Notes under the pieces: generated by a model
What the model saw: only the letters and a program-made list of their open reading frames with translations
Databases searched by the model: none
Told to the model about the DNA's origin: nothing
Position numbers and translations under genes: made by a program
Part shown: one piece after another, positions 22,774 to 37,767 of the stretch
How the letters are laid out: each line of letters opens with the position of its first letter
Numbering within the stretch: the first letter of the stretch is position 1
NCBI GenBank assembly: GCA_965214485.1
Contig: CBDCBW010000010.1
Coordinates: 130,594 to 194,593 of the forward strand
Direction of reading: 5' to 3'
DNA: 64,000 nucleotides
Source of the DNA: Rhodothermales bacterium
Lineage (GTDB): Bacteria > Bacteroidota > Rhodothermia > Rhodothermales > JANQRZ01

Positions 22774-22950
22774 TCCTATCCCGCTGTGCTCTATATTAAC
22801 GGCACGTTAGCGGCGCGCACCCGTGGTCTAGCGCTGTACGTCTCGCTTTGCTATAGCGGACGGGCACGGTTCTTGGCGGAGAGGCCCTCGAGCGGACTTC
22901 CTCCTTCCACCAACTAGGACCGTGCCCCGCCAGCGCCCCAAGATAACGGC

Positions 22951-23670
22951 ATGAACTCGAGCCCCTCTCCAGCCTCCCCGGACACTCCCGCCGCCTCGGC
23001 CCCGATCCGCGTCGTCGTCGTCGACGACCACCCGGCCATCCGCGAGGCCATCGCCGACACCATCCGCGCCCAGCCCGGACTCGAACTCTGCGGCGTCGCC
23101 GGCAGCGCCACCGACGCCTTCGACCTCGTGCGCGAGACCCAGCCCGACGTCGCCGTCATCGACATCTCGCTCGGCGACGCCCACGGCCTCGACCTGGTGC
23201 AGAACCTCCGCGCCCAGCACCGCTCGCTCGAGGTCGTCGTCTTCTCGATGTACGACGAGGAGGTCTACGCCGAGCGCGCCATCCGCGCCGGTGCCCGGGG
23301 CTACGTCATGAAGAGCGAGCCGACCCAGAGCGTCGCCGAGGCGATCCGGTGCGCGGCCTCGGGCGAGATCTACCTCAACCGCCGCGCCGCCAGCCGGATC
23401 CTGTCGAAGGTCGCCGCCGGGCACACCGGTGCCGGGCGCACCGGCGAGGCGGCGCCGGGGCTCGAGGACCTGACGGACCGGGAGATGGCGGTCTTCCAGA
23501 TGCTCGGGCAGGGTCGCCCGACCGAGGAGATCGCCGAGCGGCTGAACCTGAGCCGCAAGACGGTCGAGACCTACCGGCGGCGGGCGAAGGAGAAGCTGGG
23601 CTTCGAGACGGTGACCGAACTCCTCCAGTTCGCCATACGGTGGACCTACGCCCAGGGCAACGGCCCCTAG
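22951..23670 (+). CDS. NarL/LuxR-family response regulator, copy 1
   Basis: 239 aa with a REC domain (VVVVDDHPAIRE...DVAVIDISLGD...MKS) and a LuxR HTH (LTDREMAVFQMLGQGRPTEEIAERLNLSRKTVETYRRR). Confidence 0.85.
   Translation: MNSSPSPASPDTPAASAPIRVVVVDDHPAIREAIADTIRAQPGLELCGVAGSATDAFDLVRETQPDVAVIDISLGDAHGLDLVQNLRAQHRSLEVVVFSMYDEEVYAERAIRAGARGYVMKSEPTQSVAEAIRCAASGEIYLNRRAASRILSKVAAGHTGAGRTGEAAPGLEDLTDREMAVFQMLGQGRPTEEIAERLNLSRKTVETYRRRAKEKLGFETVTELLQFAIRWTYAQGNGP
23020..23643 (+). repeat. 624-bp block identical to 24370-24993
   Basis: Line-by-line comparison of the two regions shows no mismatch over the block (offset 1350 bp). It covers nearly the entire response-regulator coding sequence. Confidence 0.9.
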
Positions 23671-23731
23671 TGTCGCGGTCTCGCTCGTGCGCGGCCCCCC
23701 GGCCGTCAGCCCCTCGCTGTGCTCAACGGTC

Positions 23732-23781
23732 CGACGGCCCCTCCCCACAGCGTAGGGAGAAGTGTTTGGAGTGCCCGTTTG
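23732..23781. repeat. Dispersed intergenic element, copy C (second half only)
   Basis: cgacggcccctccccacagcgtagggagaagtgtttggagtgcccgtttg matches the second half of 13102-13195. It lies between the two response-regulator copies. Confidence 0.6.
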
Positions 23782-24303
23782 CTCGGAGCGGAGCGATGGC
23801 AGCGGAAGCGGGGGCCAGCCTGCGAGCAACGGTCTTCCGCTGTGGCAGTGCGGCGGGGCGGCTCTGCGGTCCTGGGCGTGAAGAACCCCTCGACTTCGGC
23901 CTACGGGACACGTCCTACGGCCCCCGCCCAGGATGACGGGACAAGGGGAGGCCATCGCGGCGCGCGGCTCCGTCTCCCGAGCCGGCACGCGGGCGAGGCG
24001 ACCGAGGCGCTTCCGACGCGATGACCGGTGAGTGTCCCGGAAAGGACCAGGGTGAGCTTGCCCCGGCACCGATCCCTCTTTTCGGCGCAGCGCGGGGGGT
24101 ACAGAAGCACTAGGCGGGATGCGCCCAAACTACCCCCTTGCATGTGCTAAAACTCAAGGGTTTCCTACCGCCCCAGCGGGTACTTTTAGATTGCCCTTCC
24201 TGCTGGTCCACGCCTCCGACCCTCTCCGCCTAACCGCCCCGGCTTCGTGTTCGCTTCCTTCTTCCCGGTCGCTGACCATGTGCCCCCCGAGGCCACCCGG
24301 ATC

Positions 24304-25029
24304 ATGCCCGTCCCTTCTCTCCATTCCGCCGCCACGGCCGCGAAGCGGGCCCCGATCCGCGTCATCGCCGTCGACGACCACCCGGCCATCCGCGAGGCCA
24401 TCGCCGACACCATCCGCGCCCAGCCCGGACTCGAACTCTGCGGCGTCGCCGGCAGCGCCACCGACGCCTTCGACCTCGTGCGCGAGACCCAGCCCGACGT
24501 CGCCGTCATCGACATCTCGCTCGGCGACGCCCACGGCCTCGACCTGGTGCAGAACCTCCGCGCCCAGCACCGCTCGCTCGAGGTCGTCGTCTTCTCGATG
24601 TACGACGAGGAGGTCTACGCCGAGCGCGCCATCCGCGCCGGTGCCCGGGGCTACGTCATGAAGAGCGAGCCGACCCAGAGCGTCGCCGAGGCGATCCGGT
24701 GCGCGGCCTCGGGCGAGATCTACCTCAACCGCCGCGCCGCCAGCCGGATCCTGTCGAAGGTCGCCGCCGGGCACACCGGTGCCGGGCGCACCGGCGAGGC
24801 GGCGCCGGGGCTCGAGGACCTGACGGACCGGGAGATGGCGGTCTTCCAGATGCTCGGGCAGGGTCGCCCGACCGAGGAGATCGCCGAGCGGCTGAACCTG
24901 AGCCGCAAGACGGTCGAGACCTACCGGCGGCGGGCGAAGGAGAAGCTGGGCTTCGAGACGGTGACCGAACTCCTCCAGTTCGCCATACGGTGGGAGCAGA
25001 GCCAGACCAGCCCGCGCTCGGACTCGTAG
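24304..25029 (+). CDS. NarL/LuxR-family response regulator, copy 2
   Basis: Identical to copy 1 except for the N-terminal about 25 aa and the last about 12 aa. Start chosen at the ATG at 24304 (MPVPSLHSAATAAKRAPIRVIAVDDH); the track ORF begins at the GTG at 24247. Confidence 0.8.
   Translation: MPVPSLHSAATAAKRAPIRVIAVDDHPAIREAIADTIRAQPGLELCGVAGSATDAFDLVRETQPDVAVIDISLGDAHGLDLVQNLRAQHRSLEVVVFSMYDEEVYAERAIRAGARGYVMKSEPTQSVAEAIRCAASGEIYLNRRAASRILSKVAAGHTGAGRTGEAAPGLEDLTDREMAVFQMLGQGRPTEEIAERLNLSRKTVETYRRRAKEKLGFETVTELLQFAIRWEQSQTSPRSDS
24370..24993 (+). repeat. Second copy of the 624-bp identical block
   Basis: See 23020-23643. Confidence 0.9.
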
Positions 25030-25103
25030 TCCGGCCAAGACTCGCCGTGCCGCAGAGCCGGCGCAGAGCCGGCGCGGAGCCTGTGCACCGCCGGGGCTCC
25101 GGG

Positions 25104-26231
25104 CTAGTCGGTCTCGGGGAGGTAGAGCTCTGCCGTCCGGCGCGCGGCGGAGTAGGCCCCGTACCGCAGCCCGCCTGCGACGCCGTCCTGCGCCAGCACG
25201 TTGAGCCGCACCCGGTCCCAGTACGGCTCGACCTTCATGTGAGCCTGTTTCGGAAGCCGCTCCAGCAGGTCGTGCCCCAGCGTTCTCACGCGGTGGTCGC
25301 GGCGGATGTCGTCCCGGACGTGCTTCGGCAGCGGAGCCGCCAGGAGGTCAGCGGCGAGCAACAGGCCGAGCCGGAGGATGCGGCGGCTGCGCATCGCGCC
25401 CATCCGGTCGTAGACGGCGTGCCAGTCCAGGCCGGGGTAGGCGCGGACGAGCTCGGCGACGTCGCAGATGTACTTGAACCGGTCCCACCGATTCTTCAGG
25501 CCGTGGTAGCACAGCACCTGGAGGAGGTCCTCCGTGCCCAGCGTGCGCACGTCGCGCCCGGCGATGGGCACCGTCACCGAGCGCGCGAGGAGGGCGTCGA
25601 AGCTCTCCGAGTACCGGTAGCCCGGCGGCATTATGGCCGTGTGCACGTCGATGAAAGCCTGCGCTTCGCCGAGGCTGTGGATGCGCCGCCAGAACGTGTA
25701 TTGGCCGTTGAGGTAGAGATAGCTCGCCTTCCGAAACGGGGTCAGCGGCTTGGACCCGTAGCCTTCGCGGGCCAGCATCCGGTCGAGCCGGTCGAAGTCC
25801 TCGCGCCGGACGACCAGGTCGATGTCGACGAACGGGCGGGCGGCGATGCCTCCGTAGACGCTCTGCGCAAGCACGGCCCCTTTGACGGCGAGCGTCGGGA
25901 AGGCCTCGCGCTCGAACACCTCGGACAGGCGCCCGAGCTCCTGCATCAGGATGAGGCTGTGGGCCGAGCGCGCCCCGACGACCCCGCGCAGCCACGTCAT
26001 GTGCGGCTCCGAGAGGAGGGCGTCGTCCATCTCGCGCAGGTGGCAGTAGAGGAGCGGCTGCACGCCGTGGTAGCCGGCCAGCGTGACGAGGTAGCCCCAC
26101 TGCAGATCGTCGTCGCGGAGGTGGTGCGCGACCTGTTCGGCATGGGACGGCTCGAGCTCCGTCCGGCAGCAGAGCCGCATGATGTTGTATTCGGGGCGGG
26201 AGCCGGCCTCGTCGGGGTGAATCGTAGCCAT
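25104..26231 (-). CDS. Uncharacterised nucleotidyltransferase family protein (NTP_transf_5-like)
   Basis: Start at the ATG at 26231 (MATIHPDEAGS...). The protein has PFVDIDLVVRREDFDRLDRMLAREGY and the overall helical N-domain typical of the PF14907-type family that often accompanies lasso-peptide/HPr-kinase-like clusters. Confidence 0.6.
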   Translation of the reverse strand: MATIHPDEAGSRPEYNIMRLCCRTELEPSHAEQVAHHLRDDDLQWGYLVTLAGYHGVQPLLYCHLREMDDALLSEPHMTWLRGVVGARSAHSLILMQELGRLSEVFEREAFPTLAVKGAVLAQSVYGGIAARPFVDIDLVVRREDFDRLDRMLAREGYGSKPLTPFRKASYLYLNGQYTFWRRIHSLGEAQAFIDVHTAIMPPGYRYSESFDALLARSVTVPIAGRDVRTLGTEDLLQVLCYHGLKNRWDRFKYICDVAELVRAYPGLDWHAVYDRMGAMRSRRILRLGLLLAADLLAAPLPKHVRDDIRRDHRVRTLGHDLLERLPKQAHMKVEPYWDRVRLNVLAQDGVAGGLRYGAYSAARRTAELYLPETD

Positions 26232-26240
26232 CAATCTCTC

Positions 26241-26292
26241 GTCATCAGAAGGGTGCCTCTTGTCCTCGGACCTCGTGTCATCAGAAGGGTGC
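26241..26292 (-). promoter_or_regulatory. Two 16-bp direct repeats in the promoter/5' region of the nucleotidyltransferase gene
   Basis: gtcatcagaagggtgc occurs at 26241-26256 and 26277-26292 (36-bp spacing). An AT-rich stretch follows, with TTGACG on the minus strand (attattgacgtgc) just upstream. Confidence 0.45.
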
Positions 26293-26461
26293 ACGTCAAT
26301 AATTCAGAACACACCGGTAGGCCTGACCGGGGCACAGCCGCCGCCGGAGGCATCGCGCGGCGAGCAGAGAGGCTGAGCGCGAGAAGGGGGTTCCGGCAGC
26401 GGGCGTCGGGGCAGTAAGATATCGCATGTTGTCCAACTTGCCTAAGGCTCCGCCAGCGCGC

Positions 26462-27598
26462 TCAGGGCTCGGACGGCCTCCGTGCAGCCTGAGCCGATGG
26501 CTTCAGCACCAGCTCGGCGATGACCGCCCGGTGGTCGGAAACCAGGTCGGGGTCCACGCGCGCGCGCCGGACCACCCAGTCGTCGCTGGCGAGCACGTAG
26601 TCGATGCGGACGAGGGGTAGGCCCGCCGGGAACGTCCCGCCCCAGCCCGTCCCGGCCTCGTCGAAGGCGTCCCGAAAGCCGTGCGCGAGGTGGGTGTAGG
26701 CCCAGTTCCGCGGCGTGCTGTTGAAGTCGCCGCACACGAGGAACGGGTGGGGCTCCGCGTCGAGCATCGCGCGTAGCTGGCGGGCCTGCTCGGCCCGGAC
26801 CTCGAAGTCGCGGCCGTAGGCGTGGAAGGCATCGAGCCAGGCGCGCGGCGAGAACCGCTGGTCCTCCCGCCGCCACGGGCGCTGGCTGCTGAACGAGTGG
26901 AGGTGCACGTTGTAGACCATGATGGTCCGGCCCTGCCACCGGTAGGCGCGGCGCGTGATGCCGCCGGAGCTCCACAGCCCCTCCGGGGGGTTGCCCCGCA
27001 CCAACTCGCTTCGCCCCACCGCCTCGATGCGCGAGAAGAGGGGCCGCGAGAACATGAAGTCCTTGCCGCCATCGGGCCGCGACATCTCGTAGGCTTTGTC
27101 CTTGAGCAGCGGGCCGAGCAGCGGCGCGCCCCAGGTCACGCCGGTGTCGCGGAGCAGGCGGATCGAGAACTCCTGGAGCGCGATGAGGTGGGGGCGGTCG
27201 CGCGCCAGCACGTTGGCGAGGACGTGCTGCTTGCCGCCGCCGTCCTTGCCTGCGTTGAACGTCATCACCGTGAGGCCGGGCGCGTCGGCGGCGGCGGTCG
27301 CGGGGTCAGCGCTGGCGTTCAGCTCCGGCATGAGCACGGTGGCGAGGCAGAGGAGGAGGTGAAGCGCAGCGAGAGCCCAGCGCCGCTTCACGATGAGACC
27401 GACGGCTACGAGCGCCGCCGCGACGAGAACAAGCGTGCCGAAGATGGCGACGACCTGGAGGCCCCAGAGCTGCTCCGGCGGCACGAAGGGGGCCGCGTTC
27501 GCCGCCGCGAGGAGGCCGACGAGCGCGGCGTCTGCCCCCCAGAGAAGCCATCGCCCCCTCCGGGACGGCGGGCGCTTCGGAACCGCTTCGGTCGTCAT
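26462..27598 (-). CDS. Membrane-anchored endonuclease/exonuclease/phosphatase (EEP) family protein
   Basis: 378 aa with about three N-terminal TM helices. The EEP motifs are VMTFN, IALQEF, VYNVHL, CGDFNSTP, RIDYVL and SDHRAV. The start overlaps the upstream stop (ATGA at 27595-27598). Confidence 0.75.
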   Translation of the reverse strand: MTTEAVPKRPPSRRGRWLLWGADAALVGLLAAANAAPFVPPEQLWGLQVVAIFGTLVLVAAALVAVGLIVKRRWALAALHLLLCLATVLMPELNASADPATAAADAPGLTVMTFNAGKDGGGKQHVLANVLARDRPHLIALQEFSIRLLRDTGVTWGAPLLGPLLKDKAYEMSRPDGGKDFMFSRPLFSRIEAVGRSELVRGNPPEGLWSSGGITRRAYRWQGRTIMVYNVHLHSFSSQRPWRREDQRFSPRAWLDAFHAYGRDFEVRAEQARQLRAMLDAEPHPFLVCGDFNSTPRNWAYTHLAHGFRDAFDEAGTGWGGTFPAGLPLVRIDYVLASDDWVVRRARVDPDLVSDHRAVIAELVLKPSAQAARRPSEP

Positions 27599-28503
27599 GC
27601 CGGAATGTAGAACCGCATCAGGACGAGGACGAAGGCGGCCACGTAGAGCGCCGGGGCGTACCGGAAGGTCTCACGCTCGCACTGCATGATCCCCATCGCC
27701 ACGATGAGCCACGCGAAGTACAGGATCGGCGCGACGACGTAGGTCGAGAAGACGAACGCCAGCAGCACCGCGTCGCGCCACTTCGCCAGCCAGAACCTCC
27801 TCGGGAGCAGAAAGGCCACGGCCACGGCTCCCTCGATGGCGAGCGTCCACCACGTCATCAGCGCGGCGAGCCAGCGCGCCTCCGCCGCCAACGGCACCGC
27901 GAGCGCCCCCGCCGGATCGCCGAAGGCGGTGTAGACCACCCGCTCAAGGCGCGCCCGCGCCAGCACCCCGGCGTCGAGCCCGACGAGGTGCTCGGCGAAC
28001 AGCCCGAAGCGCGTGTCCTGAAGCAGGAAGTAGTTGAAGAACGCGCCGCTCACGTAGTCCGGCGAGAGCACCTTCCACAGCGTGGCGAACAGGAAGCACA
28101 GCCCGATGAGCACGCGGGCGTTCACCCGCACCGCCTTCAACGGCTCCACCGCGAGGAGCGAGACGCCGAGGCCGAGGCACCAGTAGAGCTTGAGGAAGTC
28201 GTGGTTGTTCTGCTGGTGCCACGTCTGCCAATAGGCGAGCACGAGCACCCCCACGAGCCCGAGCCACAGCAGCGGGTTGCGCATGAGCGGCCGGAGCACG
28301 AGCGCCGTCACCGTGAGCGTGGTGAGGCCGAGCTGGATGTGCCACGCCGGCTCGTGCAGCGAGAGCACGATCATCACGAGCGTCATCGCCGCCCCGAGCT
28401 CGAACAGGTCGGCCCCGAGGAGCGCATCGACGGGCCGGCGGGCGAGCGTACGCAGCCGGCTCGGTGGTCGAGGGTGCACAGGGGAGAGGGGGGCGGAGTC
28501 CAT
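27595..28503 (-). CDS. Polytopic membrane protein, HTTM / vitamin-K-dependent gamma-carboxylase-like membrane domain
   Basis: 302 aa with about 8 hydrophobic helices. WHQQNNHDFLKLYW resembles the WNNHSYLYGLL motif of GGCX. LWKVLSPDYVSGAFF resembles GVKKLDADWVEGYSM around the catalytic Lys. MTWWTLAIEGAVAVAFLLP resembles VHWGGLLLDLSAGFLLF. The comparison is from a recalled human GGCX sequence, not a search. Confidence 0.45.
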   Translation of the reverse strand: MDSAPLSPVHPRPPSRLRTLARRPVDALLGADLFELGAAMTLVMIVLSLHEPAWHIQLGLTTLTVTALVLRPLMRNPLLWLGLVGVLVLAYWQTWHQQNNHDFLKLYWCLGLGVSLLAVEPLKAVRVNARVLIGLCFLFATLWKVLSPDYVSGAFFNYFLLQDTRFGLFAEHLVGLDAGVLARARLERVVYTAFGDPAGALAVPLAAEARWLAALMTWWTLAIEGAVAVAFLLPRRFWLAKWRDAVLLAFVFSTYVVAPILYFAWLIVAMGIMQCERETFRYAPALYVAAFVLVLMRFYIPA

Positions 28504-28509
28504 AGGGTG

Positions 28510-29118
28510 CTACTCGGCAGCGCTCGGTTGCACCGTCGCCTCGGCGATGCGCTCCCAGCGAAGCAGCTCGGCGTCGGGGTCGAAGACGGGCCTCCAGACC
28601 TCGACGCGCGCGCCCTCGACCTCGGCGTCGGTCGGGAGGCCGTTGTAGGGCGCGCGGCGCGGGTCGAAGGCCAGGTGGCTGGGGTAGAGACCGGAGGCAT
28701 CGACCGACGCCGAGTCCGCCCACGCCGCCTGCCACGCCTCGGAGGTGCGGAAGTAGTGCTGGAGGAAGTCCGGCAGCGACGGCCAGACCGTGCGGTACGT
28801 CGAGGCGTCGTAGACCCGCCAGTCCTGCGCGGCGACGGTGCGCGCCGCCGCCTCGAGGCGGGCCTGCGTCGGCTGCGTGTAGACCAGGCGCGTCTTGACC
28901 CCGAAGCGGGGCTCGACGACGAGCGCCTCGCCCCGGTCCGTCAGCACGTAGGCGCGGAGGGCGCGGGCCCCGGGCACGTCCACGGTCGAGAACATCCCGA
29001 AGCCGCCGCCGGCCCACTGTGTCTGGCCGTGGACCTCGACGTTGTAGCGCTGCAGCGCCACGCCGGCGATCAGCACGATGGGGGCGAGTCCGTAGGCGAG
29101 CCGCTGCGGGAGTCTCAT
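28510..29118 (-). CDS. Single-pass membrane/exported protein, resembles the start of the extracytoplasmic domain of HTTM/VKGC-family proteins
   Basis: Start at the ATG at 29118 (MRLPQRLAYGLAPIVLIAGVALQ), overlapping the ABC exporter stop (ATGA). GGGFGMFSTVDVPGARALRAYVLTDRGE resembles the GYSWDMMVHS...VKITYRDGRTGE segment that follows the membrane domain in GGCX. Otherwise there is no recognisable motif. Confidence 0.35.
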   Translation of the reverse strand: MRLPQRLAYGLAPIVLIAGVALQRYNVEVHGQTQWAGGGFGMFSTVDVPGARALRAYVLTDRGEALVVEPRFGVKTRLVYTQPTQARLEAAARTVAAQDWRVYDASTYRTVWPSLPDFLQHYFRTSEAWQAAWADSASVDASGLYPSHLAFDPRRAPYNGLPTDAEVEGARVEVWRPVFDPDAELLRWERIAEATVQPSAAE

Positions 29119-31025
29119 CGCGGTACGGCGGTGGGGTCCGGAGCAGGGGTCACCTCGGCGGTCTCGTCCCCGGCCTGCCCGTCGCCGACGATGGGCTCCG
29201 CCGTGCCGTCCTCCTGCCGCATCTGCGCCCGCCACGACGCCGCGTACCGCCCGCCGAGGGCAATCAGCTCGTCGTGCGTGCCGGTCTCGACGACCTGCCC
29301 GGCGTCCATGACGTGGATAATGTCGGCCTGCATCGCAGTCGTGAAGCGGTGGGTGATGAGGAGCGCCGTCCGGCCCTCGACCATCCGGCGGAACCGCGCC
29401 AGCCACTCGTTCTCGGCCCACGAGTCCATCGAGCTCGTCGGCTCGTCGAGCACGACGATCGGGGCTTGGCGGAAGAAGGCCCGCGCGAGCGCGACCCGCT
29501 GCCACTCGCCGCCGCTCAGCTCGCTCCCCGTCTCGAACCACCGCCCGAGGACCGAGTCGTACTTCCGGGGCAGCTTCTCGATGACCTCGTGCGCCCCCCC
29601 GCCGACGGCTGCCGCCTGCACGGCGTCGAGATCGACCTCGCGGCCGAGGTCGCCGAGGCGGATGTTGTCCTCGGCCGTCATCTGGTACTTCATCGGGACC
29701 TGGAACATCACCGAGACGTGGCGGCGCAGGTCGGTCTGCGCGAACTCCCGCAGGTCGATGCCGTCGACCGTGATGCGCCCGGCGGTCGGGTCATAGAACC
29801 GGCAGAGGAGCTTGATGAAGGTGCTCTTCCCCGCCCCGTTCTCGCCGACGATGGCGACGATCTTGCCCGACGGGATCGTGAGGTTGAAGCCTTCGAGCGC
29901 CTTCCGCTCGAAACCGGGATAGCTGAACGAGACGTCCTCGAACCGGACGCCCTCGTCGATCCGGTCGGGAAATGGGGTGGGCGTTGCCGGCTCGGCGAGG
30001 CCGTTCTCCTGGTCGAGGAAGTCGAAGAGGTGTTCGAGGAAGAGCGTGTTGGTGTAGACCTGTCCCATGTTCTGGAGCAGCCCGCCGACGAGCGCCTGCC
30101 CCTGGTTGAACGCCTGGTAGAAGAGCGCGAGGTCCCCCAGCGTGGCCGCGCCGCGCGTCGCCCGGAGCACGACCCACAGCATCGCCCCGCCGGTGGCAAT
30201 GAGGCCCATGAAGGTGGCGAAGATGCGCGCGACGACCTGGTTCTTGAGCAGCTTCAGGCGCTCCTCCCGAAGGGCCCGGCGCAGCGCGAGGTAGCGGCTG
30301 CGGAAGTACTCGCCGGTGTTGTTGATCCGCACCTCGGCCGCCGACGCATCGAAGGTCACCATCAGGTCGAAGTACTGCGCGAGGCGGCGGCGGGCCGTCG
30401 AGGCCTTCCACCACGCATGGTACTTCTTGTTGTGACGGACGACGACGAAGAACGCCGGCAGCGTGCTGACGATGAGCACGAGGGGCAGCCACAGGCTGTA
30501 GCTCAGCAGGATCGCCGAGATCGAGAGCAGCGTCACGGTCGCGCTGAGCAGCCCGCCGATGTTGCCGAGGAGCTGCAGCACCCGGCTGTTGGCCTGCGAG
30601 TTGACCTGCTCGAGCTTGTCGTGGTAGTCCGCCGACTCGTAGAAGCCGAAGTCCACCTCGGTCGCTTTCTCGTGGACGAGGGCCTTGACTCGGTCCCCGA
30701 CGAGCTCCGCCTGCGCGGTCGAGACCCACTCGTTGATCCCGCCGAGGACGCGCTGCAGAATCATGACCCCGCCCATCAGCGCCGCCGGAGCGATCACCAC
30801 CGCCAGCGCAGCCTCGCCCGCGACCGCCGCCGCGAGGCTATCGACGAGCCACTTCGTGAGGTAGACCACCGCCGCCGGCAGCGTCCCCTGCACGGCCAGG
30901 AGGAGGAACCACACCACGGTCCACCGGCTCGCCGCCGACCAGATCAGCCGGAGCGCCATCCCCACGTAGGACGCCCGCAGCCGGAGGTCGTCGGCCTTGT
31001 GCCGCCACGTCTGCGTTGCCGTCAT
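29115..31025 (-). CDS. ABC exporter, fused permease + ATPase (lasso-peptide D-type transporter)
   Basis: 636 aa with a six-helix TMD. The NBD has Walker A GENGAGKSTF, signature LSGGEWQRV and Walker B IVVLDEPTS. It sits inside the lasso operon. Confidence 0.85.
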   Translation of the reverse strand: MTATQTWRHKADDLRLRASYVGMALRLIWSAASRWTVVWFLLLAVQGTLPAAVVYLTKWLVDSLAAAVAGEAALAVVIAPAALMGGVMILQRVLGGINEWVSTAQAELVGDRVKALVHEKATEVDFGFYESADYHDKLEQVNSQANSRVLQLLGNIGGLLSATVTLLSISAILLSYSLWLPLVLIVSTLPAFFVVVRHNKKYHAWWKASTARRRLAQYFDLMVTFDASAAEVRINNTGEYFRSRYLALRRALREERLKLLKNQVVARIFATFMGLIATGGAMLWVVLRATRGAATLGDLALFYQAFNQGQALVGGLLQNMGQVYTNTLFLEHLFDFLDQENGLAEPATPTPFPDRIDEGVRFEDVSFSYPGFERKALEGFNLTIPSGKIVAIVGENGAGKSTFIKLLCRFYDPTAGRITVDGIDLREFAQTDLRRHVSVMFQVPMKYQMTAEDNIRLGDLGREVDLDAVQAAAVGGGAHEVIEKLPRKYDSVLGRWFETGSELSGGEWQRVALARAFFRQAPIVVLDEPTSSMDSWAENEWLARFRRMVEGRTALLITHRFTTAMQADIIHVMDAGQVVETGTHDELIALGGRYAASWRAQMRQEDGTAEPIVGDGQAGDETAEVTPAPDPTAVPR

Positions 31026-31053
31026 CGGATTGCATTCTCAGCCAACCCGGAGG

Positions 31054-31962
31054 CTAGCTGTGTGTGGGGACCGCATCGAGGTCTGCCTCGACCAGAGCGA
31101 AGATGTCGGGCAGGGCATCGAGAGACATGATACGCTCCAGAAGCGCCACCGGCGTGTGCTTGGCGAGCTGGGCGCACTGCTTGAAGTGCTCGGAGACGTA
31201 CTCGGGGGCGGTGATCCAGTTCGTCGAGTGCGTGTGGGCGACGAGGTGCATCGGCACCTCCTGCGTGCCGAGCTGCGTGACCCGGTTCGCCTCCGAGGTC
31301 TGCCGCCGCAGCACGTAGAGCTTCGACAGAGGTATCGACCGCACGTCCTCCCCCTTTAGAAGGCGCAGCCGCTTGGGCGAAATCTCGGTGACGAGCGGCA
31401 GGCTTTCGTGGTCCTCGACGAGCCGCTCGGCGGAGTTCGGGCGGAGGCGGACCTGTTTGATGCCCGGCGGGACGCGCGTCGGCTCGGTCTCCGTGCCGGG
31501 GAGCACCACCATCACGTCGTCCGTGATGAGCTCGTAGCCGTTCTGGCAGAAGTACTCGGCGAGGGTCGACTTGCCCCACCCGGAGTTGCCCAAAAACGCG
31601 ACCGCCCGCTCGCCGTCCGACACCGCCGAGCCGTGCAGCACGAGGAGGTGGCGCTGCCTGAGCGCCGCCGCGAGCAGCGCGCCCTGCACGAAGCTGCGGA
31701 GGAGGTCCTCCGAGATCGGCTTCAGCGTGTCGTAGGTGACGACCCTGCCCGCGTTGAGGTGGAAGAGGAGGTCGAGGTCCCACTCGTCTTCCTTGATGTG
31801 CCCGGAGACCACGTCCCCGTAGCGCGCGTCGGCAGCGCTCTTGCGCACGCGGAGGTTGCCTTTTTGGATCGTGACGTCGGGCGGACCGTCGTCGCCGGGT
31901 GCGAAGCCGGAGAGCTCGATGTCGGAGTGGATGGAGAGTCCGAAAGCCTTGTGGCGATGCAT
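31054..31962 (-). CDS. HPr-kinase-C-terminal-domain-like Ser/Thr kinase (lasso-peptide kinase type)
   Basis: Start at the ATG at 31962 (MHRHKAFGLSIHSDIEL). LHGSAVSDGERAVAFLGNSGWGKSTLA is the P-loop context seen in HprK-related kinases of paeninodin-type lasso clusters. Confidence 0.65.
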   Translation of the reverse strand: MHRHKAFGLSIHSDIELSGFAPGDDGPPDVTIQKGNLRVRKSAADARYGDVVSGHIKEDEWDLDLLFHLNAGRVVTYDTLKPISEDLLRSFVQGALLAAALRQRHLLVLHGSAVSDGERAVAFLGNSGWGKSTLAEYFCQNGYELITDDVMVVLPGTETEPTRVPPGIKQVRLRPNSAERLVEDHESLPLVTEISPKRLRLLKGEDVRSIPLSKLYVLRRQTSEANRVTQLGTQEVPMHLVAHTHSTNWITAPEYVSEHFKQCAQLAKHTPVALLERIMSLDALPDIFALVEADLDAVPTHS

Positions 31963-32021
31963 CGTGTGGTGGGCTGCAGGCGGCGGGACCTGGGTTGCAG
32001 AGATGAGAGCACCCCATTCTA

Positions 32022-32102: not shown

Positions 32103-32288
32103 CTACGGATCGATCATGCACGTTTCCTGGTTGACGGTCGGGCACTGGTCGACCGAGTTGAGTCCTTCCTCGATCACGTTGCCGTCCAGGTCGAACGACT
32201 GATCGCCCGTGAAGGGGTCGCCCAGCGTCGCCGTGATCTCCGCCACATCACCGTAAGCGGTGAGTTGAGGTGCGATATAGGTCTTCAT
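32103..32288 (-). CDS. Lasso-peptide precursor (A), 61 aa
   Basis: MKTYIAPQLTAYGDVAEITA|TLGDPFTGDQSFDLDGNVIEEGLNSVDQCPTVNQETCMIDP. The leader fits the lasso motif YxxPxLx3Gx5Tx exactly (Y4, P7, L9, G13, T19). Asp sits at core position 9. The gene lies between the cyclase and the kinase. The ATG at 32288 is internal to the 102-aa track ORF. Confidence 0.7.
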   Translation of the reverse strand: MKTYIAPQLTAYGDVAEITATLGDPFTGDQSFDLDGNVIEEGLNSVDQCPTVNQETCMIDP

Positions 32289-32490: not shown

Positions 32491-34587
32491 CTAGACCGGC
32501 ATCTCCCCACCTTCCGGTTTCGTGAGCGAGGGGGTACTCTCCGCCGTGTCCACGAATCTCTTCTTTAGCCAGAAAGACAGGGTAGCCACACGGGCGAGCT
32601 GGGCCTGTTCGATGTTGGAAACGTCTTTCCCCCCGCGGTAGAGGCTATCGACCTCGGCTTCGTCCACGTAGGGGCGGAGCGCCCCGAGGTCCGTGATGTG
32701 TTCGTCGAGGAGGCCGCGGTCTTGCTCGTAGAGGCCGCGCTCGAAGTTGGGAGCGAGCCACGCCTTGCCCACGCGCCACTGCACTTTCTTCGGCAGGACG
32801 CCCTCGAGCGCGCGGCGCAGGATGGACCGCGTCCACCCGTCTTTCAGGCTCTGCCCGGGCGGGAGCGCGAGGCAGAACTCGACGAGCCGTTTGTCGAAGA
32901 AGGGGTGACGGATTTCGATGCGGTGTGCTGCGCTGGCGTGGGTGGTGAGCTCGAGCGCCGTTTGGATGCGGGAGCCGTTGAGCAACTGGCGCTGCACGTC
33001 GCGCACCGTCGTTAGCCGAGGCTTCTGGACCTCGAAGGCCTGCAGGCGCTCGGCGACCCCGATGCGTTCGGCAAAGGCGGGGTTCAGCAGCGGCAGGAGC
33101 GGCTCGGGGCGGCGCTCGGCCTTGGGGCCGCTGCGCCAGGCGTCGCGGGCGCGCTGCAAAGCCAGCGGTTGCATCAGCCAGCGCCGGTAGCGCCGGAACA
33201 GCTCGGCGCGCTCAACGCCGAAGAGCCGGTGCGCCGCCGAGGCTTCGCGGACGAACTGCCAGCGCTTGCCCTGCTCGGCGAGACGCTGAAGCCGGGCCAG
33301 CCCGAACCGCTGGAACGCCGTGTTGAGGTTGGCGAAGCTGTCCTCGAAGTTGTGGCGCTGCTCGGTGCTCTGGAACTGCCGCGCCGCAGCCTTGCTCTCG
33401 TGGGCGAACGTCTCCCAGTCCCCAGCCTCCGCTAGCTCCTTGAGATAGAGCAGCCCGTGCCCGACGACGTTGTCCCCGTCGAGGCCATCGAGGAGCACGC
33501 GGACGCCCGCCTTGCGAGCGGCAGCCTTCGCGGCCCACACGAGATGCTGGTTGCCGCTGGCGAGGCCGTCGTCGAGGTAGGTGTACACCTCGTCCAAATT
33601 GGAGAGCGGCCCGAGCTGGTCCCCTCGCACGAAGTGCGGGATGAAATCGCCTTGCTCTAGCACCGCGTCGATGAACGGGCGCTCGTCGCACGTCGCGACG
33701 TCCTCGTAGACGAGCGAGACCGTGTGGAGCGGCTTCCCCTCTTTCTCCAAGAGCCGCGCTGCCACAGCCGTGATCGACGACGAGTCCATCCCCCCACTCA
33801 GTTCAGAGCCGACGGGGAACGCGCTGCGGAGGCGGGCGCGGACGGCCTCGGTGAACAGCTCCCGGAAGCGCGCCTCGTACTCGGCGTCGGAGGCGTCGGG
33901 TGGCACATCGGCCGCCGGGGCCAGCGTGTAGTAGCGCCAGCGCCGCAGCCCGTCCGGGGAGACGGTGAGCGCGTGCGAGGCCGGGAGGCGGAGGACCTCT
34001 TCGTAGATCGTGTTCTCCGGGTCCTCGCGCATGGTCGCGAGGAAATCGGCGAGGCGGACCTCGTTGAGCCGCTCCGGCACCTCGGGTACGGCGAGCAGGG
34101 CTTTGATCTCCGTCCCGCAGGCGAAGTGGCTCCCCTCCCGGTAGTGGTAGTAGAAGGGTCGGATGCCGAAGTGATCGCGCGCGCAGAACAGCCGCTGCGC
34201 CGGGCCGTCCCAAATGGCAAAGGCGAAATCCCCGATGAGATGATCGAGGCAGCCCTCGCCCCACGCCGCGTAGGCGGCCAGAATCAGGTTGCTGTCGGTG
34301 ACGGGCTCCGCCTGGTCGCCGAGCCGCAGCCGGGCGAGCAGCGCGTCCCGGTTGTCGATCCGGGCATCGGCGGTGATGGCGAGCCCCGCCTCGGTCGCCA
34401 ACGGCAGCGCTTCGTGCAGCGATTCCGGCGTGGTGTGGAGCATCCGGTGCCCCAGCCCGATCGGCCCCTCGGCCCACACGCCCGCGCCGTCAGGGCCGCA
34501 GTGCGCCACGGCGTCGCCCATGCGGCGCAGCGCGTCCCGGTCCACGCCGTGACCGTCGAGTCGGTATAGCCCGGTGAGTGCGCTCAC
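32491..34587 (-). CDS. Lasso-peptide cyclase (asparagine-synthetase-like, C protein)
   Basis: Start at the GTG at 34587 (VSALTGLYRLDGHGVD), overlapping the B2 stop (GTGA). There is no N-terminal Cys nucleophile. It has the PP-loop SELSGGMDSS and is 698 aa. The 121 upstream codons of the track ORF overlap B2 out of frame. Confidence 0.8.
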   Translation of the reverse strand: MSALTGLYRLDGHGVDRDALRRMGDAVAHCGPDGAGVWAEGPIGLGHRMLHTTPESLHEALPLATEAGLAITADARIDNRDALLARLRLGDQAEPVTDSNLILAAYAAWGEGCLDHLIGDFAFAIWDGPAQRLFCARDHFGIRPFYYHYREGSHFACGTEIKALLAVPEVPERLNEVRLADFLATMREDPENTIYEEVLRLPASHALTVSPDGLRRWRYYTLAPAADVPPDASDAEYEARFRELFTEAVRARLRSAFPVGSELSGGMDSSSITAVAARLLEKEGKPLHTVSLVYEDVATCDERPFIDAVLEQGDFIPHFVRGDQLGPLSNLDEVYTYLDDGLASGNQHLVWAAKAAARKAGVRVLLDGLDGDNVVGHGLLYLKELAEAGDWETFAHESKAAARQFQSTEQRHNFEDSFANLNTAFQRFGLARLQRLAEQGKRWQFVREASAAHRLFGVERAELFRRYRRWLMQPLALQRARDAWRSGPKAERRPEPLLPLLNPAFAERIGVAERLQAFEVQKPRLTTVRDVQRQLLNGSRIQTALELTTHASAAHRIEIRHPFFDKRLVEFCLALPPGQSLKDGWTRSILRRALEGVLPKKVQWRVGKAWLAPNFERGLYEQDRGLLDEHITDLGALRPYVDEAEVDSLYRGGKDVSNIEQAQLARVATLSFWLKKRFVDTAESTPSLTKPEGGEMPV

Positions 34588-35045
34588 GCGGCGTCCGGGT
34601 GGACCGGGCTCAGCGGCGTGTACCGGACCTGCGACAGCCCTCCCCCGATGACGACGTAGCCGTCGCGCTCGAGCCATGCATGCGCCAGGAGTTTGCGACC
34701 GTCCTTGCTGACGCCGAGGTGAAGCGAGGTTTCGTAGCCGCCCCGCCGCAGCATCCGCTGCGCGACGAGCGCCTGCGTCAGGCACGGCTTGTCGCCCAGC
34801 GTCCGTCGTCCCACCGCCTCCACGGCGGCGACGACGCGCTGCCGGAAGGCTGCCCCCTCTTGGATAGTGACAGGAGCTACCTCTCTTCGCCCTGAACTCG
34901 TTAGACCTGAGCCTGCCAGACGCTGCACCGTGCGATAGGGCAGCACCCACAACCCCACCCGCACCGCCGCTACCAGCGCAAGCGCGTGCAGCAGGAGCAT
35001 CTTGTCCTCCCCGGACCGGTCTAGGAATTTACGAAGGGCTCCCAT
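34584..35045 (-). CDS. Lasso-peptide leader peptidase (B2, transglutaminase-like Cys protease)
   Basis: 153 aa. N-terminal LRKFLDRSGEDKMLLLHALALVAAVRVGLWVLPYRTV, catalytic Cys context KPCLTQALVAQRMLRRGG and His context LLAHAWLERDG are all typical of lasso B2 proteins. Confidence 0.8.
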   Translation of the reverse strand: MGALRKFLDRSGEDKMLLLHALALVAAVRVGLWVLPYRTVQRLAGSGLTSSGRREVAPVTIQEGAAFRQRVVAAVEAVGRRTLGDKPCLTQALVAQRMLRRGGYETSLHLGVSKDGRKLLAHAWLERDGYVVIGGGLSQVRYTPLSPVHPDAA

Positions 35046-35319
35046 CCGTGATCTCGATGAGCTGACGCTGCTCCATCTCGTGCAAAAACGCGAGGAGGTC
35101 TTCCTTCAGCTTACTCTCCTTCACATCGTACTCCTGGAGCAAGGCGTCCATGATGCGTTCCACCGAACGCGGTTTCCGCACGAGGTCGAAGATGCGGGCT
35201 CCTAGCTCGTTCAGGCCGTAATAGCGCCCCGAGTTAGGGTCCAGCACGACGGCCTCTCCACCGAGATCAGCAGCCGTCAAGCCCGGCGTCACTACAACAG
35301 TCGATTGCTCTGTCATCAT
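35029..35319 (-). CDS. PqqD-family RiPP recognition element (lasso B1)
   Basis: GEAVVLDPNSGRYYGLNELGARIFDLV...ERIMDALLQEYDV is the PqqD/RRE pattern. ATG at 35319, with an alternative TTG at 35331. It overlaps the B2 start by 17 nt. Confidence 0.75.
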   Translation of the reverse strand: MMTEQSTVVVTPGLTAADLGGEAVVLDPNSGRYYGLNELGARIFDLVRKPRSVERIMDALLQEYDVKESKLKEDLLAFLHEMEQRQLIEITDGSPS

Positions 35320-35477
35320 GAGCAGGTTCAAGGTGAGTTACCTCCGAAGGGATTTAAGGGCACAGTATAGAGCGCGTCCGACTGAAGTGCCTACGCCCGC
35401 CCGAGATTCTACCGAGCAACGTGCCGTTTTGGTGCCAGCACATCCTGTGCCGTGAGCCTGCCAAGCACCGAGAGTTC

Positions 35478-36758
35478 TCAGGACGCTGCCCCCGACATAT
35501 TGAAGCCCGGTCTCGGACTGAGCCGCTGGCCTCCGTGCTCCTGAGCTTCCTGGATCCTTCCTGCAGCCACCGGCTCCGCAGGAGCATCCTGCTCCACGTC
35601 ATTCTCGAAAGCTGTGGCATACGACGCCAGCTCTACGTGCTCCCGAAGCCGGTCCTCAGTTCCGAGCGAAGGCACCCCGATCGGGTGAACGTCCGGTCCG
35701 ACGTAGCTACGCCGGAGATATTTCAGCCTGTTCAACCCGAGGCCAGCCAAAGCGAGCACGGCAACGACGATTCCGACGCTATAGGCAGCCGAGGTCACGC
35801 TCATCATCACAGCCGCGCCTCCGAACGAAACCGCCACCGCGTAGAGCACCAGCACAGCCTGGCGGTGCGACAGCGTCCGCGTGAGCCGGTGGTGAATGTG
35901 GTCCCGATCCGGCGCGAAGATCGCCTGCTGCCCGAGGAAACGCCGAGCGATGGAGAGCGCCGTGTCGATCAGCGGCAGGCCGAGCACGACGGCCGGGATG
36001 AGCACGGCCAGCCAGGGGTTGGGGTGGCCGGTGCCGGAGAGGCTGTACGTCGCCAGCAGATAGCCCAGGAACAGGCTCCCGGAATCGCCCATGAAGATAG
36101 ACGCCGGGTTGAAGTTGAACAGCAAGAACCCAGCGAGCGCCCCGGTGATGATGAGAGCGATCAGGACGAGGCCCAACTCGCCGTTGAGCCCGAAGATCAG
36201 TCCCAGCGACGCGAAGGCGATCAGCGACACCCCGGCGGCGAGGCCGTCGAGGCCGTCAAGCAGGTTGACGGCGTTGATCACGCCGACGACCCAGAGCAGC
36301 GTCAGCGGCATCGAGATGAGCGCGTGCGTGTAGGGGTCCTCGCCCAGGAACGGTATTCCCGCCAGGTCGATCCGGTACCCGGCGTGCAGCAGGGCGTACG
36401 CGACGAGGAGTTGGACGAGGAACTTGCCCTTGAAGCCGAGGCCCCGGATGTCGTCGTAGAAGCCGGCGGCCACAATCACGAGCGCGCCCACCCACAGAGC
36501 CGACGAGGGGAACTGAACATCGAAGTGCAGCAGGTCCCGGACCGCGTGCAGGTAGGCAAGCCCCACGGCGAACCCAATCGCGATGGCGACGCCGCCAACA
36601 GCCGGGACGATGGCCGCGTGTAGCTTCCGCTGTCCATCCGGGTGGTCAACCCAGTCCCGTTCAATTGCAAGACGCCGTACGACCGGCGTGAGCAGGCCCG
36701 TCGTCCCGAAAGCGACGAAGAAGCCTGTGATGAGGGTGATGAGTACCGAATACTCCAT
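35478..36758 (-). CDS. Polyprenyl-phosphate HexNAc-1-phosphate transferase (MraY/WecA/WbpL family, GT4 superfamily)
   Basis: 426 aa with about 10-11 TM helices and motifs YDDIRGL, NAVNLLDGLDGLA, NPASIFMGDSGSLFLGY and DRDHIHH. It also has an about 90-aa non-membrane C-terminal tail. Confidence 0.8.
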   Translation of the reverse strand: MEYSVLITLITGFFVAFGTTGLLTPVVRRLAIERDWVDHPDGQRKLHAAIVPAVGGVAIAIGFAVGLAYLHAVRDLLHFDVQFPSSALWVGALVIVAAGFYDDIRGLGFKGKFLVQLLVAYALLHAGYRIDLAGIPFLGEDPYTHALISMPLTLLWVVGVINAVNLLDGLDGLAAGVSLIAFASLGLIFGLNGELGLVLIALIITGALAGFLLFNFNPASIFMGDSGSLFLGYLLATYSLSGTGHPNPWLAVLIPAVVLGLPLIDTALSIARRFLGQQAIFAPDRDHIHHRLTRTLSHRQAVLVLYAVAVSFGGAAVMMSVTSAAYSVGIVVAVLALAGLGLNRLKYLRRSYVGPDVHPIGVPSLGTEDRLREHVELASYATAFENDVEQDAPAEPVAAGRIQEAQEHGGQRLSPRPGFNMSGAAS

Positions 36759-37651: not shown

Positions 37652-37767
37652 GGGCGTCGTAGAGGAGAGGGGGAACATAGCCGTGCGCCGTGTGCATCGG
37701 CCAGCAAGGCGTTACACACGGCGCACAGTGGAAGGGGGCCTAAGCCCTGGAACGGGAATATAACGCG

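Follow-up and report, generated by a model that had tools for sequence, protein, structure and literature searches.

A new two-subunit variant of the HTTM/GGCX superfamily encoded within a lasso peptide operon of a Rhodothermales bacterium

The window analyzed in this work, i.e., a stretch of 64,000 nucleotides of contig CBDCBW010000010.1 from a Rhodothermales bacterium, carries a lasso peptide operon, the genes of which (all given below) lie on the minus strand. It begins with genes for the B1 protein (RRE, PqqD; 35029..35331), the leader peptidase B2 (Transglut_core3; 34584..35045), and the cyclase C (32491..34590; NF033535 with 759.8 bits over ORF residues 123-796, and Asn_synthase), followed by genes encoding a 61-aa precursor (32103..32288), an HPr-kinase-like protein (31054..31959), and an ABC exporter comprising a membrane domain and an ATPase (29115..31025; ABC_tran, 9.7e-33, and ABC_membrane). 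The HPr-kinase-like protein is presumed to be a homologue of lasso tailoring kinases; its match to Hpr_kinase_C is weak (E 7.7e-4, below the cut-off), and its orthologues give faint or weak ScmC matches. As regards gene boundaries, the 819-aa cyclase ORF is over-extended, with its true start near the stop of the B2 gene, and the frame 31022-32017 was rejected as that of the kinase-like gene. Two minus-strand ORFs further along (24154-25038 and 22828-24069) are spurious; the real genes there encode response regulators on the plus strand. The operon adjoins polysaccharide genes (Wzz/GNVR and Glycos_transf_4).

Downstream of the exporter, and within the same operon, are localized the two genes on which this work is focused, encoding a 202-aa single-pass protein (P0049; 28510..29118) and a 302-aa polytopic membrane protein (P0001; 27595..28503). 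Both ORFs and the strings quoted from them had been given in a preliminary description of this DNA and were confirmed, as was their membership of a lasso operon, with the PqqD, B2, cyclase, precursor, and exporter genes all upstream. The pair is followed by a gene for a protein of the endonuclease/exonuclease/phosphatase (EEP) family (26462..27598; Pfam Exo_endo_phos, 2e-20), whose hydrophobic N-terminal region (about residues 17-90, by eye) would anchor it in the membrane, and by a gene for an NTP_transf_5 nucleotidyltransferase-like protein (25104..26294; Pfam, 4.4e-52), the last one of the conserved block. A nucleotidyltransferase homologue, PsmN, is also known from the lasso cluster of pseudomycoidin (PMC9266682). 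The coding regions around the pair overlap by 4 nt on each outer side (the exporter stop with the start of the 202-aa gene, as ATGA, and the stop of the 302-aa gene with the EEP start), and 6 nt separate the two pair genes. The whole operon is found in the same order, NTP_transf_5 gene included, in three other loci (L031, L032, and L046), and even at 56% identity the pair still lies between the exporter gene and the EEP/NTP-transferase genes.

Neither protein of the pair was matched by any Pfam model, even at E ≤ 10, or by any NCBIfam model, even at E ≤ 1. The HTTM profile (PF05090), against which the preliminary description had proposed to check the pair, did not match the 302-aa protein at E ≤ 10, and in a Pfam scan of 94 family members at E ≤ 1 it matched none of the 94, the only hits being weak ones to MauE (three members) and DoxX_3 (one member). 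Within the whole genome, the sole PF05090 match was a copy on contig 9. GGCX was not found, either, when PDB sequences were searched with the profile HMMs of the family.

Structural comparison, on the other hand, bore out the likeness to human gamma-glutamyl carboxylase (GGCX) that the preliminary description had suggested. The AlphaFold model of the 302-aa protein (pLDDT 90.9) retrieved GGCX at rank 1 (Z 7.9) in a fold search of 48,161 representatives, and in a structural second look GGCX occupied ranks 1-11 (all 11 entries listed; Z 11.7-12.8), followed by an unrelated bundle (Z 9.2) and NACHO (Z 7.0), which is a lead of 3.6 Z over the next fold. Ten of these entries aligned with 200-211 residues of the model at an rmsd of about 4.0 Å, and the eleventh (9l21) with 219 residues at 9.8 Å; the aligned span covers about residues 30-283 of the model and 60-319 of GGCX, i.e., its membrane domain TM1-8. 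Foldseek gave a probability of 0.97 and a TM-score of 0.47 for GGCX and at most 0.22 for all other rows; GGCX was singled out there by TM-score and probability only, the E-values being uninformative (best 0.06, to ABC transporter domains). The 302-aa chain stops after the membrane domain, so the GGCX 374-418 segment and the lumenal domain are absent from it; the relatives listed are 227-341 aa long.

Profile-profile comparison (hhalign) of the family with 30 PF05090-positive ORFs gave P 6e-7 (92%), and variants run against mixed or divergent HTTM sets gave 1.2e-4, 2e-4, and 1.1e-3; reversed controls gave P 0.17-0.73, and the comparison with the canonical subgroup of about 457 aa alone was weak (P 0.012-0.21). 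In the ESM Atlas, an HTTM cluster was the only Pfam-bearing neighbor of the 302-aa protein (score 0.84), which is treated as a lead only. The likeness of this protein to GGCX exceeds chance.

The register between the family and GGCX was set transitively, via a canonical bacterial HTTM protein aligned to GGCX (E 8.6e-50), and the human GGCX strings given in the preliminary description turned out to be correct in that alignment. The three motifs proposed there, QNNHDFLKLY (residues 98-107), LWKVLSPDYVSGAFF (residues 142-156), and TWWTLAIEGAVAVAFLLP (residues 217-234), are in register on GGCX N159/H160, K218, and D263: N100/H101 correspond to N159/H160 (start of TM4), K144 aligns to the HTTM Lys, which aligns to K218 (outer end of TM5), and E224 aligns to the HTTM D/E and to D263 (TM6). 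In addition, T254, which is conserved in the family, occupies the position of N290. In GGCX, K218, D263, and N290 serve in the deprotonation and binding of vitamin K hydroquinone, N159/H160 line the substrate pocket (PMC12589487, PMC13486548), and the D263E variant is still active (PMC13486548). As to the conservation of the NNH and Lys motifs, N100 and H101 are invariant in 94 diverse family members, whereas K144, invariant in 39 members, is at least 90% conserved in the 94, as is E224; of 30 true HTTM ORFs, 29 have an NH motif. The positive-inside rule puts these active-site residues where TM4, TM5, and TM7 end on the periplasmic side. The evidence supports the 302-aa protein as a remote member of the HTTM/GGCX fold in which the catalytic residues are kept.

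The 202-aa protein consists of an N-in signal-anchor helix, a loop with the invariant pattern W-x-GGGFGMFST-D, and a small periplasmic alpha/beta domain terminated by an invariant E-V-W strand; its periplasmic part has only about 150 residues. Two of its strings, GGGFGMFSTVD (37-47) and LRAYVLTDRGE (54-64), had been thought reminiscent of the start of the GGCX lumenal part, which found no statistical support: hhalign of the small-protein family against this counterpart gave P 0.34-0.46, the collinear short motifs being seen by eye only, and comparisons with whole, C-terminal-canonical, and divergent HTTM proteins gave nothing significant (P 0.23-0.46). Fold searches yielded nothing at Z ≥ 3 (the best matches, T-fold proteins, reached 2.9, and GGCX was not among the matches), nor was a propeptide-binding lumenal domain detectable by them. 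Only unnamed clusters were found in the ESM Atlas, and looking for relatives in which the small protein is part of a longer fusion gave no example, which counts as weak evidence.

The genomic arrangement is, in turn, highly regular. A gene of the small-protein family (A2) is localized directly upstream of the large-subunit gene in all eight HMM-scanned loci and, counting the small upstream ORFs of two further short contigs, in 10/10 loci, among them distant relatives and a second pair of the Rhodothermales genome, which supports the 202-aa protein as an obligate partner of the 302-aa one. Physical binding of the two is predicted: the heterodimer model, also proposed in the preliminary description, reached an ipSAE of 0.91 in three runs (best of three controls, 0.00), a mark that 58 of 80 solved complexes attained, as did 2 of 110 mismatched pairs; solved GGCX structures may have contributed to this outcome, because the halves of split proteins tend to pass. 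The runs share at least 96% of contacts, with a partner pLDDT of at least 86. On the large subunit, the predicted interface includes residues 95-100 and 143-144; on the small one, it includes residues 1-20, 36-47, 173, and 175, with the GGGFGMFS loop placed against N100 and K144. Since the conserved loop would thus lie at the active site, in the place of the GGCX TM9-linker (about 374-404), the earlier idea of two halves split and encoded in swapped order is reasonable as far as the predicted complex and the obligate upstream partner are concerned, whereas homology of the small protein to the GGCX lumenal domain is not supported by sequence or fold. On the predicted complex, the small subunit may be regarded as equivalent to GGCX TM9 plus linker.

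The pair is therefore described here as a new two-subunit variant of the HTTM/GGCX superfamily, with a predicted partner complex. We give a probability of about 0.5 to its being a two-subunit inner-membrane enzyme that uses menaquinol and O2 and most likely modifies the exported lasso peptide. In such an enzyme, the 302-aa subunit would reproduce GGCX TM1-TM8 with the quinol-site residues and the substrate-pocket residues N100/H101. The 202-aa subunit would put one N-in/C-out helix beside TM4/TM5, and its GGGFGMFS loop, lying on N100 and K144, would take the place of GGCX TM9 and the membrane-embedded linker (Y379, Y395, S398, M401/M402), its small domain staying in the periplasm. As for cofactor, chemistry, and substrate, we infer that the complex would use the cell's menaquinol (MenA is encoded in the genome, E 7.6e-66) and O2 to form, on the outer side of the membrane, a strong base or oxidant derived from the quinone, which would then modify a periplasmic substrate. 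In the lasso clade this would most likely be the exported lasso peptide. GDPFTGD, SFDxDG, and QCPTxNxxxC are conserved elements of the precursor core, and the modification would be expected at a conserved site of this kind, with candidates in the Asp-rich segment SFDxDG and in the tail QCPTxNxxxC, rather than at a non-conserved Glu. A narrower form, in which a two-subunit menaquinol/O2 counterpart of GGCX would carry out a vitamin-K-type, base-driven modification of the exported peptide on the outer side of the inner membrane (a conserved Asp or a position in the tail might, e.g., be carboxylated, epimerised, or hydroxylated), is put forward only tentatively, as distinctly unlikely in that particular shape.

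The strongest rival is a general envelope- or quinone-linked module that is co-transcribed with the lasso genes and leaves the peptide unmodified, acting instead, e.g., in lipid, glycan, or quinone modification, or in protection of the producer's membrane; we consider it possible, if on balance somewhat unlikely. The family numbers at least 1,565 clusters at 50% identity, yet of 401 genomes from the phylum only 3 have the module, and its surroundings are diverse. The second pair of the Rhodothermales genome, on contig 9 (42% and 39% identity), is preceded by GT2, carbamoyltransferase, and GT4 genes, the L033 copy lies downstream of a two-component system and the L035 copy downstream of an NrfD-type oxidoreductase, and the L044 and L045 copies are found amid housekeeping genes. 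With most members devoid of adjoining RiPP genes and neighbored by, among others, glycosyltransferases, a two-component system, a molybdopterin oxidoreductase, and housekeeping genes, the module serves a general function, in which a peptide need not take part. The polysaccharide genes beside the lasso operon itself and the role in lipid modification proposed for GGCX-like epoxidases of giant viruses (PMC13486548) point the same way. Against this, the pair of the lasso clade is flanked by lasso-associated genes (the exporter upstream and NTP_transf_5 downstream) with the overlaps and conserved arrangement described above, and a separate generic copy is already present in the genome. The lasso-linked sequences form one monophyletic clade with 100% SH-aLRT support, most members of the family lying outside RiPP clusters. 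As a module, the pair is autonomous and widespread, and its recruitment into a lasso operon occurred once, in one clade.

A quinone-linked thiol oxidase forming a disulfide in the QCPTxNxxxC tail, after the DoxX/MauE relatives of HTTM, would fit the tail Cys pair, conserved in all ten precursors, as well as the weak MauE/DoxX_3 matches of 4/94 members and the presence of the DoxX-like NACHO among the fold neighbors (Z 7.0). However, the large subunit has no invariant Cys and the small subunit of the window has none at all, and because the pair lacks a conserved Cys, disulfide formation is ranked low; moreover, conservation falls on the residues of the GGCX epoxidase site, and the two VKOR homologues encoded elsewhere in the genome could serve this purpose. 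We regard this explanation as improbable.

More doubtful still is the menaquinol-dependent gamma-carboxylation of the EE and QET Glu residues of the exported lasso peptide, as envisaged in the preliminary description. The GGCX catalytic constellation is kept, including the N/H of the Glu pocket, and the precursor of the window has an acidic tail. Nevertheless, none of the Glu residues is strictly conserved among the ten precursor copies from four loci: most of them have T, R, S, or V in place of the QET Glu, and two L032 copies have a core devoid of Glu. The lack of a conserved Glu in the lasso-clade precursors makes this reaction unlikely and leaves the conserved Asp residues and the Cys pair as alternative sites; the lack of a detectable propeptide-binding lumenal domain also speaks against it. 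A Leptospira HTTM orthologue reportedly has epoxidase activity without carboxylase activity, which is counted on the same side. Finally, a purely fold-level resemblance, the pair being a non-catalytic membrane scaffold or transporter accessory, has very little to recommend it, since, although helical membrane bundles reach middling Z by chance and no curated model matches the family, four functionally defined GGCX positions are kept in register at a mean identity of about 32% within the family, GGCX stands 3.6 Z above the next fold, and the reversed-profile controls fail.

Returning to the two-subunit enzyme, its importance lies in the size of a family that is unannotated and keeps the GGCX catalytic residues. 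The obligate small partner suggests that a GGCX segment needed for carboxylation can be supplied in trans. The lasso clade encodes a small, exported, mass-spectrometry-friendly candidate substrate next door, which opens the chemistry of the whole family to direct testing. Should the pair act on the peptide, RiPP tailoring would gain an extracytoplasmic, quinone-dependent step. We know of no bacterial HTTM protein with a defined substrate; if the vitamin-K-type modification is true, it would provide the first one for a bacterial HTTM-type enzyme and a new class of lasso tailoring, and would mean that GGCX residues 374-418 can work as a separate subunit.

Compared with GGCX, the pair has the same TM1-TM8 fold (Z up to 12.8), the NH motif, the catalytic Lys, its acidic partner, and the TM7 polar residue in register, an active site on the non-cytoplasmic face, and a conserved loop after a TM helix that is predicted to close the site as the TM9-linker does. 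It differs in being made of two polypeptides, with the linker-equivalent part encoded first, in having a partner without detectable homology to propeptide-binding domains, in the replacement of D263 by E and N290 by T, in the lack of a conserved Glu substrate, and in not being recognized by PF05090. Canonical bacterial HTTM proteins (PF05090), which have about 450-470 aa in Bacteroidota (the divergent copy on contig 9 has 426 aa), belong to the same superfamily by profile-profile comparison, and share the NH and A/W-K motifs, the acidic TM6 residue, and the TM7 Thr. In contrast to the family described here, which ends after the membrane domain and is always paired with a small protein, they are single chains that keep a W-TEEG-Y-R-F-S-W linker and whose C-terminal domain can be aligned to GGCX as far as about residue 505.

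SdpB and YitO of B. subtilis are presumably HTTM proteins as well, and PF05090 does have a match in the control genome of B. subtilis. They are linked, along with the small proteins SdpA and YitP, to the secreted peptide toxins SDP and YIT, the small protein being encoded, as here, directly upstream of the HTTM-type protein in a peptide-toxin operon (PMC6818787). The statement that any RiPP link would be new was thus too broad; the lasso link is new, lasso peptides and HTTM not having been found together in the literature searched. Differently from SdpA/SdpB, the pair matches no NCBIfam model, a set that should include the SdpA/SdpB families, TIGR04034 (SdpA) had no match in the Rhodothermales genome or in 201 genomes of the phylum, and the substrate class would be a lasso peptide, which is of cytoplasmic origin and leaves the cell through an ABC transporter.

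The GGCX-like 'vitamin K epoxidase' domains of giant viruses are likewise truncated membrane domains that keep K218 and a Glu at D263 and lack the 374-418 segment (PMC13486548). In viruses, these domains are fused to, or located next to, desaturases and VKOR, and a small partner ORF is absent (PMC13486548), whereas here a dedicated partner appears to supply the segment that they are missing.

The 202-aa single-pass protein P0049 (28510-29118, minus strand) and the 302-aa polytopic protein P0001 (27595-28503, minus strand) are encoded within a minus-strand operon spanning positions 35331 down to about 25104 of the window (G+C content about 70%). In operon order, it comprises genes for a PqqD/B1 protein (35029-35331), a transglutaminase-like B2 protein (34584-35045), a lasso cyclase (NF033535, 759.8 bits), a 61-aa lasso precursor (32103-32288), an HPr-kinase-like protein (31054-31959; weak match, E 7.7e-4), an ABC exporter (29115-31025), P0049, P0001, a membrane-anchored EEP-family protein (26462-27598) and, as the last, an NTP_transf_5 protein (25104-26294). 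The RiPP operon context claimed in the preliminary description was thus borne out by the B1, B2, cyclase, precursor and exporter genes. The exporter and P0049 genes overlap by 4 nt, as do the P0001 and EEP genes, and 6 nt separate the P0049 and P0001 genes. The longest cyclase ORF (32491-34950, minus strand; 819 aa) reaches about 120 codons too far, into the B2 gene; the family model matches from residue 123, and the true start is probably the GTG adjoining the B2 stop (approximately 34587). The operon is flanked by polysaccharide genes (35478-40158, minus strand; a Wzz/GNVR tyrosine-kinase-type co-polymerase, a 173-aa protein and Glycos_transf_4) and, on the other side, by two convergent GerE-type response regulators (22951-25029, plus strand); both flanks recur in the relatives' loci L031 and L032.

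[quoted passage not shown] A profile search of 1.84 billion representatives placed P0001 in a family of at least 1,565 proteins (E≤1e-3), with sizes of 252-341 aa in all 150 matches listed; one close relative derives, by its NCBI name, from a Bacteroidota MAG. Among 94 diverse members, N100, H101, W80 and F250 are invariant, while D99, K144, R165 and E224 are at least 90% conserved, so that the Asn-His and Lys motifs pointed out previously are indeed kept across the family.

Three structural comparisons concur. The AlphaFold model of P0001 (pLDDT 90.9) had as its top match among 48,161 PDB representatives, in an alignment without Foldseek, GGCX (9bum_A, Z 7.9). With Foldseek, E-values were weak, and GGCX alone reached a probability of 0.97/0.92 (TM 0.47/0.46). 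On a second look at the Foldseek candidates, ranks 1-11 were occupied by 11 GGCX entries (Z 11.7-12.8; model residues of about 30-283 on GGCX 60-319), ten of them with 200-211 residues aligned at an rmsd of about 4.0 A and the eleventh, 9l21, with 219 at 9.8 A, followed by an unrelated soluble bundle (Z 9.2), the DoxX-like NACHO (7.0) and all others at 6 or less. Profiles were also compared by hhalign with 30 ORFs from same-phylum genomes scoring above the cut-off of HTTM (PF05090), the bacterial relatives of GGCX. The close relatives of P0001 aligned with all 30 over 190 columns (probability 92%, P 6e-7) and with a divergent HTTM subgroup at P 1.2e-4, and the broad P0001 family alignment gave P 2e-4 and 1.1e-3, whereas the canonical subgroup of about 457 aa, taken by itself, yielded no better than P 0.012-0.21. 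With reversed targets P was 0.17-0.73, and block-shuffled ones retained the Lys-motif block alone (P 0.0025-0.07). Among its ESM Atlas neighbours, all otherwise unnamed, is a single cluster with PF05090 in 33% of its members (score 0.84), a link that we treat as a lead only. P0001 is therefore a remote member of the HTTM/GGCX superfamily lying outside the Pfam family boundary, with GGCX as its closest structural relative and divergent bacterial HTTM proteins, e.g., a 426-aa copy on contig 9, as its closest relatives in sequence; we hold its fold and active-site conservation to be genuine with high confidence.

In the hhalign register, D-N-H of the family falls on the HTTM N-H motif, W-K on A-K, I-E-G on the TM6 Asp/Glu and S-T-Y on the TM7 Thr. 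All strings quoted in the preliminary description are present in the two proteins, and the GGCX strings given there were confirmed by aligning a canonical HTTM ORF with human GGCX (E 8.6e-50), which sets N100/H101 on N159/H160, K144 on K218, E224 on D263 and T254 on N290. In GGCX, hydroquinone is deprotonated by K218 as the base, with D263 as the partner of K218 (D263E keeps activity); N290 binds quinol, and N159/H160 with Y395 coordinate the Glu substrate (PMC12589487; PMC13486548). The topology deduced from the model together with the positive-inside rule would put the Arg-rich N-terminus of P0001 and its loops 71-75, 123-130, 235-242 and 277-281 in the cytoplasm. TM4, TM5 and TM7 would then carry N100/H101, K144 and T254, respectively, at their periplasmic ends, and a periplasmic helical cap would span 147-205.

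The pairing of the two genes is solid. In 8/8 loci scanned with both family HMMs, the 300-aa gene is immediately preceded, in the same orientation, by an ORF of the P0049 family, and two further short contigs likewise carry a small ORF at that place; the loci take in remote relatives (35-40% identity) and this genome's second pair. In P0049, a positively charged N-terminus leads into a single hydrophobic helix (model residues 5-30); the protein also has an invariant loop W35-x-G37-G38-G39-F-G-M42-F43-S-T-x-D47, further invariant R52 and P83, and a C-terminal strand E173-V-W175. The heterodimer suggested earlier was predicted with an ipSAE of 0.91 in three runs that shared at least 96% of contacts (partner pLDDT at least 86), against 0.00 for the best of three controls. 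In calibration, 58 of 80 solved complexes attained this mark, as did 2 of 110 mismatched pairs; with custom alignments in use the calibration is only approximate, and, as GGCX structures have been solved, a pass for what may be halves of a single fold might in part echo those structures. We regard the prediction as solid, and the two proteins very likely form a complex.

In the predicted interface, the P0049 helix (1-20) packs against TM4/TM5 (107-139), the invariant loop (36-47) touches 95-100 and 143-159, and E173 and W175 touch the cap (186-204). The loop contacts in the model resemble those of GGCX, where K217/K218 and N159/H160 are contacted by TM9 (Y379) and a membrane-embedded linker (S398, Y395, M401/M402) (PMC12589487). 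GGCX 374-418 is reported to be essential for carboxylation and is missing in virus-encoded epoxidase-only forms (PMC13486548); P0049 may plausibly supply its equivalent in trans. Homology of P0049 itself to GGCX is unproven, unlike that of P0001: fold searches gave a best Z of 2.9, to T-fold proteins, with no GGCX match, and its family did not align significantly with whole HTTM proteins or their C-terminal parts (hhalign, P 0.23-0.46). By eye, P0049, canonical HTTM and GGCX share a collinear series (a Q-bearing helix, W-x2-G-x-[YF]-G, a strand ending D-x-x-G, [ST]-Q-P-[DT]...L..A..L and a V-E-V-W-like strand), which, as it does not reach significance, is treated as a lead only.

The proposal of a split GGCX-like enzyme is thus largely supported as an interpretation, and we put the probability that the complex is an active quinol-dependent oxygenase at about 0.55. 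With MenA (E 7.6e-66) and two VKOR homologues encoded in the genome, a naphthoquinol cofactor and possibly epoxide or quinone recycling are available; the MenA gene (contig 10, 128762-129610) lies about 1 kb before the window start and about 29 kb from the pair, probably by coincidence. A DsbB-like thiol relay is unlikely, as the pair has no invariant Cys and P0049 no Cys at all.

That the putative oxygenase acts on the lasso peptide is a tentative assignment, less probable than not. Relatives at least 56% identical (L031, L032 and L046) retain the entire lasso operon, in which the number of precursor genes ranges from one to four (one at 32103-32288 in the window; L032:5346-6289; L046:4878-6451). 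More distant relatives lack it: one pair follows a two-component system, one follows molybdopterin/NrfD oxidoreductase and DUF2092 genes, one lies beside a convergent TonB_C gene and two among housekeeping genes. The second pair of this genome (contig 9, 714495-716350; L043:9475-11152, minus strand), 42% and 39% identical to that of the window, comes immediately after GT2, carbamoyltransferase and GT4 genes and has no RiPP genes in its vicinity. At two distant non-lasso loci, a small same-strand ORF lacking a Pfam match precedes the pair (L033:7067-7378, 103 aa; L035:7095-7544, 149 aa) and could encode a third component or substrate. The family is rare in the phylum (3/401 genomes searched, this one with two copies); the commonest phyla of neighbouring ESM Atlas clusters are Acidobacteriota, Myxococcota, Verrucomicrobiota and Pseudomonadota. 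In a tree of 131 members, rooted at the midpoint only, the four verified lasso-linked sequences fall into one 26-member clade (100% SH-aLRT) and all six verified non-lasso sequences outside it, context having been verified for these ten rows. Together with the non-RiPP contexts, this shows the pair to be a generic module, taken up a single time into a lasso cluster.

The specific chemistry proposed before, gamma-carboxylation of precursor Glu residues, is very improbable, since these sites vary among the precursors. Common to ten precursor copies, drawn from four loci, is the core G-D-P-F-T-G-D-x-S-F-D-x-D-G...G-x-N-S-x-x-Q-C-P-T-x-N-x-x-x-C, in which four Asp residues and a Cys pair are strictly conserved. 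The "EE" position varies among EE, ET, DT, TE, QE and ED, most copies replace the "QET" Glu by T, R, S or V, and in two copies from L032 the core lacks Glu altogether. The lasso ring would close on G1-D7 if the leader Thr is at position -2, and SFDxDG resembles calcium-binding DxDG motifs. Known lasso kinases phosphorylate a C-terminal Ser; the precursors end in Pro or Val, so the target of the kinase-like protein, if any, must differ. Orthologues of its gene show faint ScmC matches. The EEP (endonuclease/exonuclease/phosphatase) protein, present in every lasso-linked locus and with a hydrophobic N-terminal stretch seen by eye, could serve as a phosphatase outside the cytoplasm, with an exported phosphorylated peptide as its substrate.

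The membrane proteins of the Bacillus subtilis SdpA/SdpB and YitP/YitO systems are of the HTTM type. Neither protein of the pair matches any NCBIfam model, a collection that presumably includes the SdpA/SdpB families. In the literature searched, no paper contains both "lasso peptide" and "HTTM". A 2022 review of lasso tailoring names phosphorylation, glycosylation via a nucleotidyltransferase homologue, methylation, acetylation and hydroxylation; a term search of it turned up neither a membrane protein nor carboxylation as a tailoring step (PMC9266682). SdpA/SdpB and YitP/YitO offer the nearest functional precedent, in which a small protein is likewise encoded just upstream of a membrane protein, and YitP/YitO, like SdpA/SdpB, have been proposed to process a secreted toxin precursor (PMC6818787).
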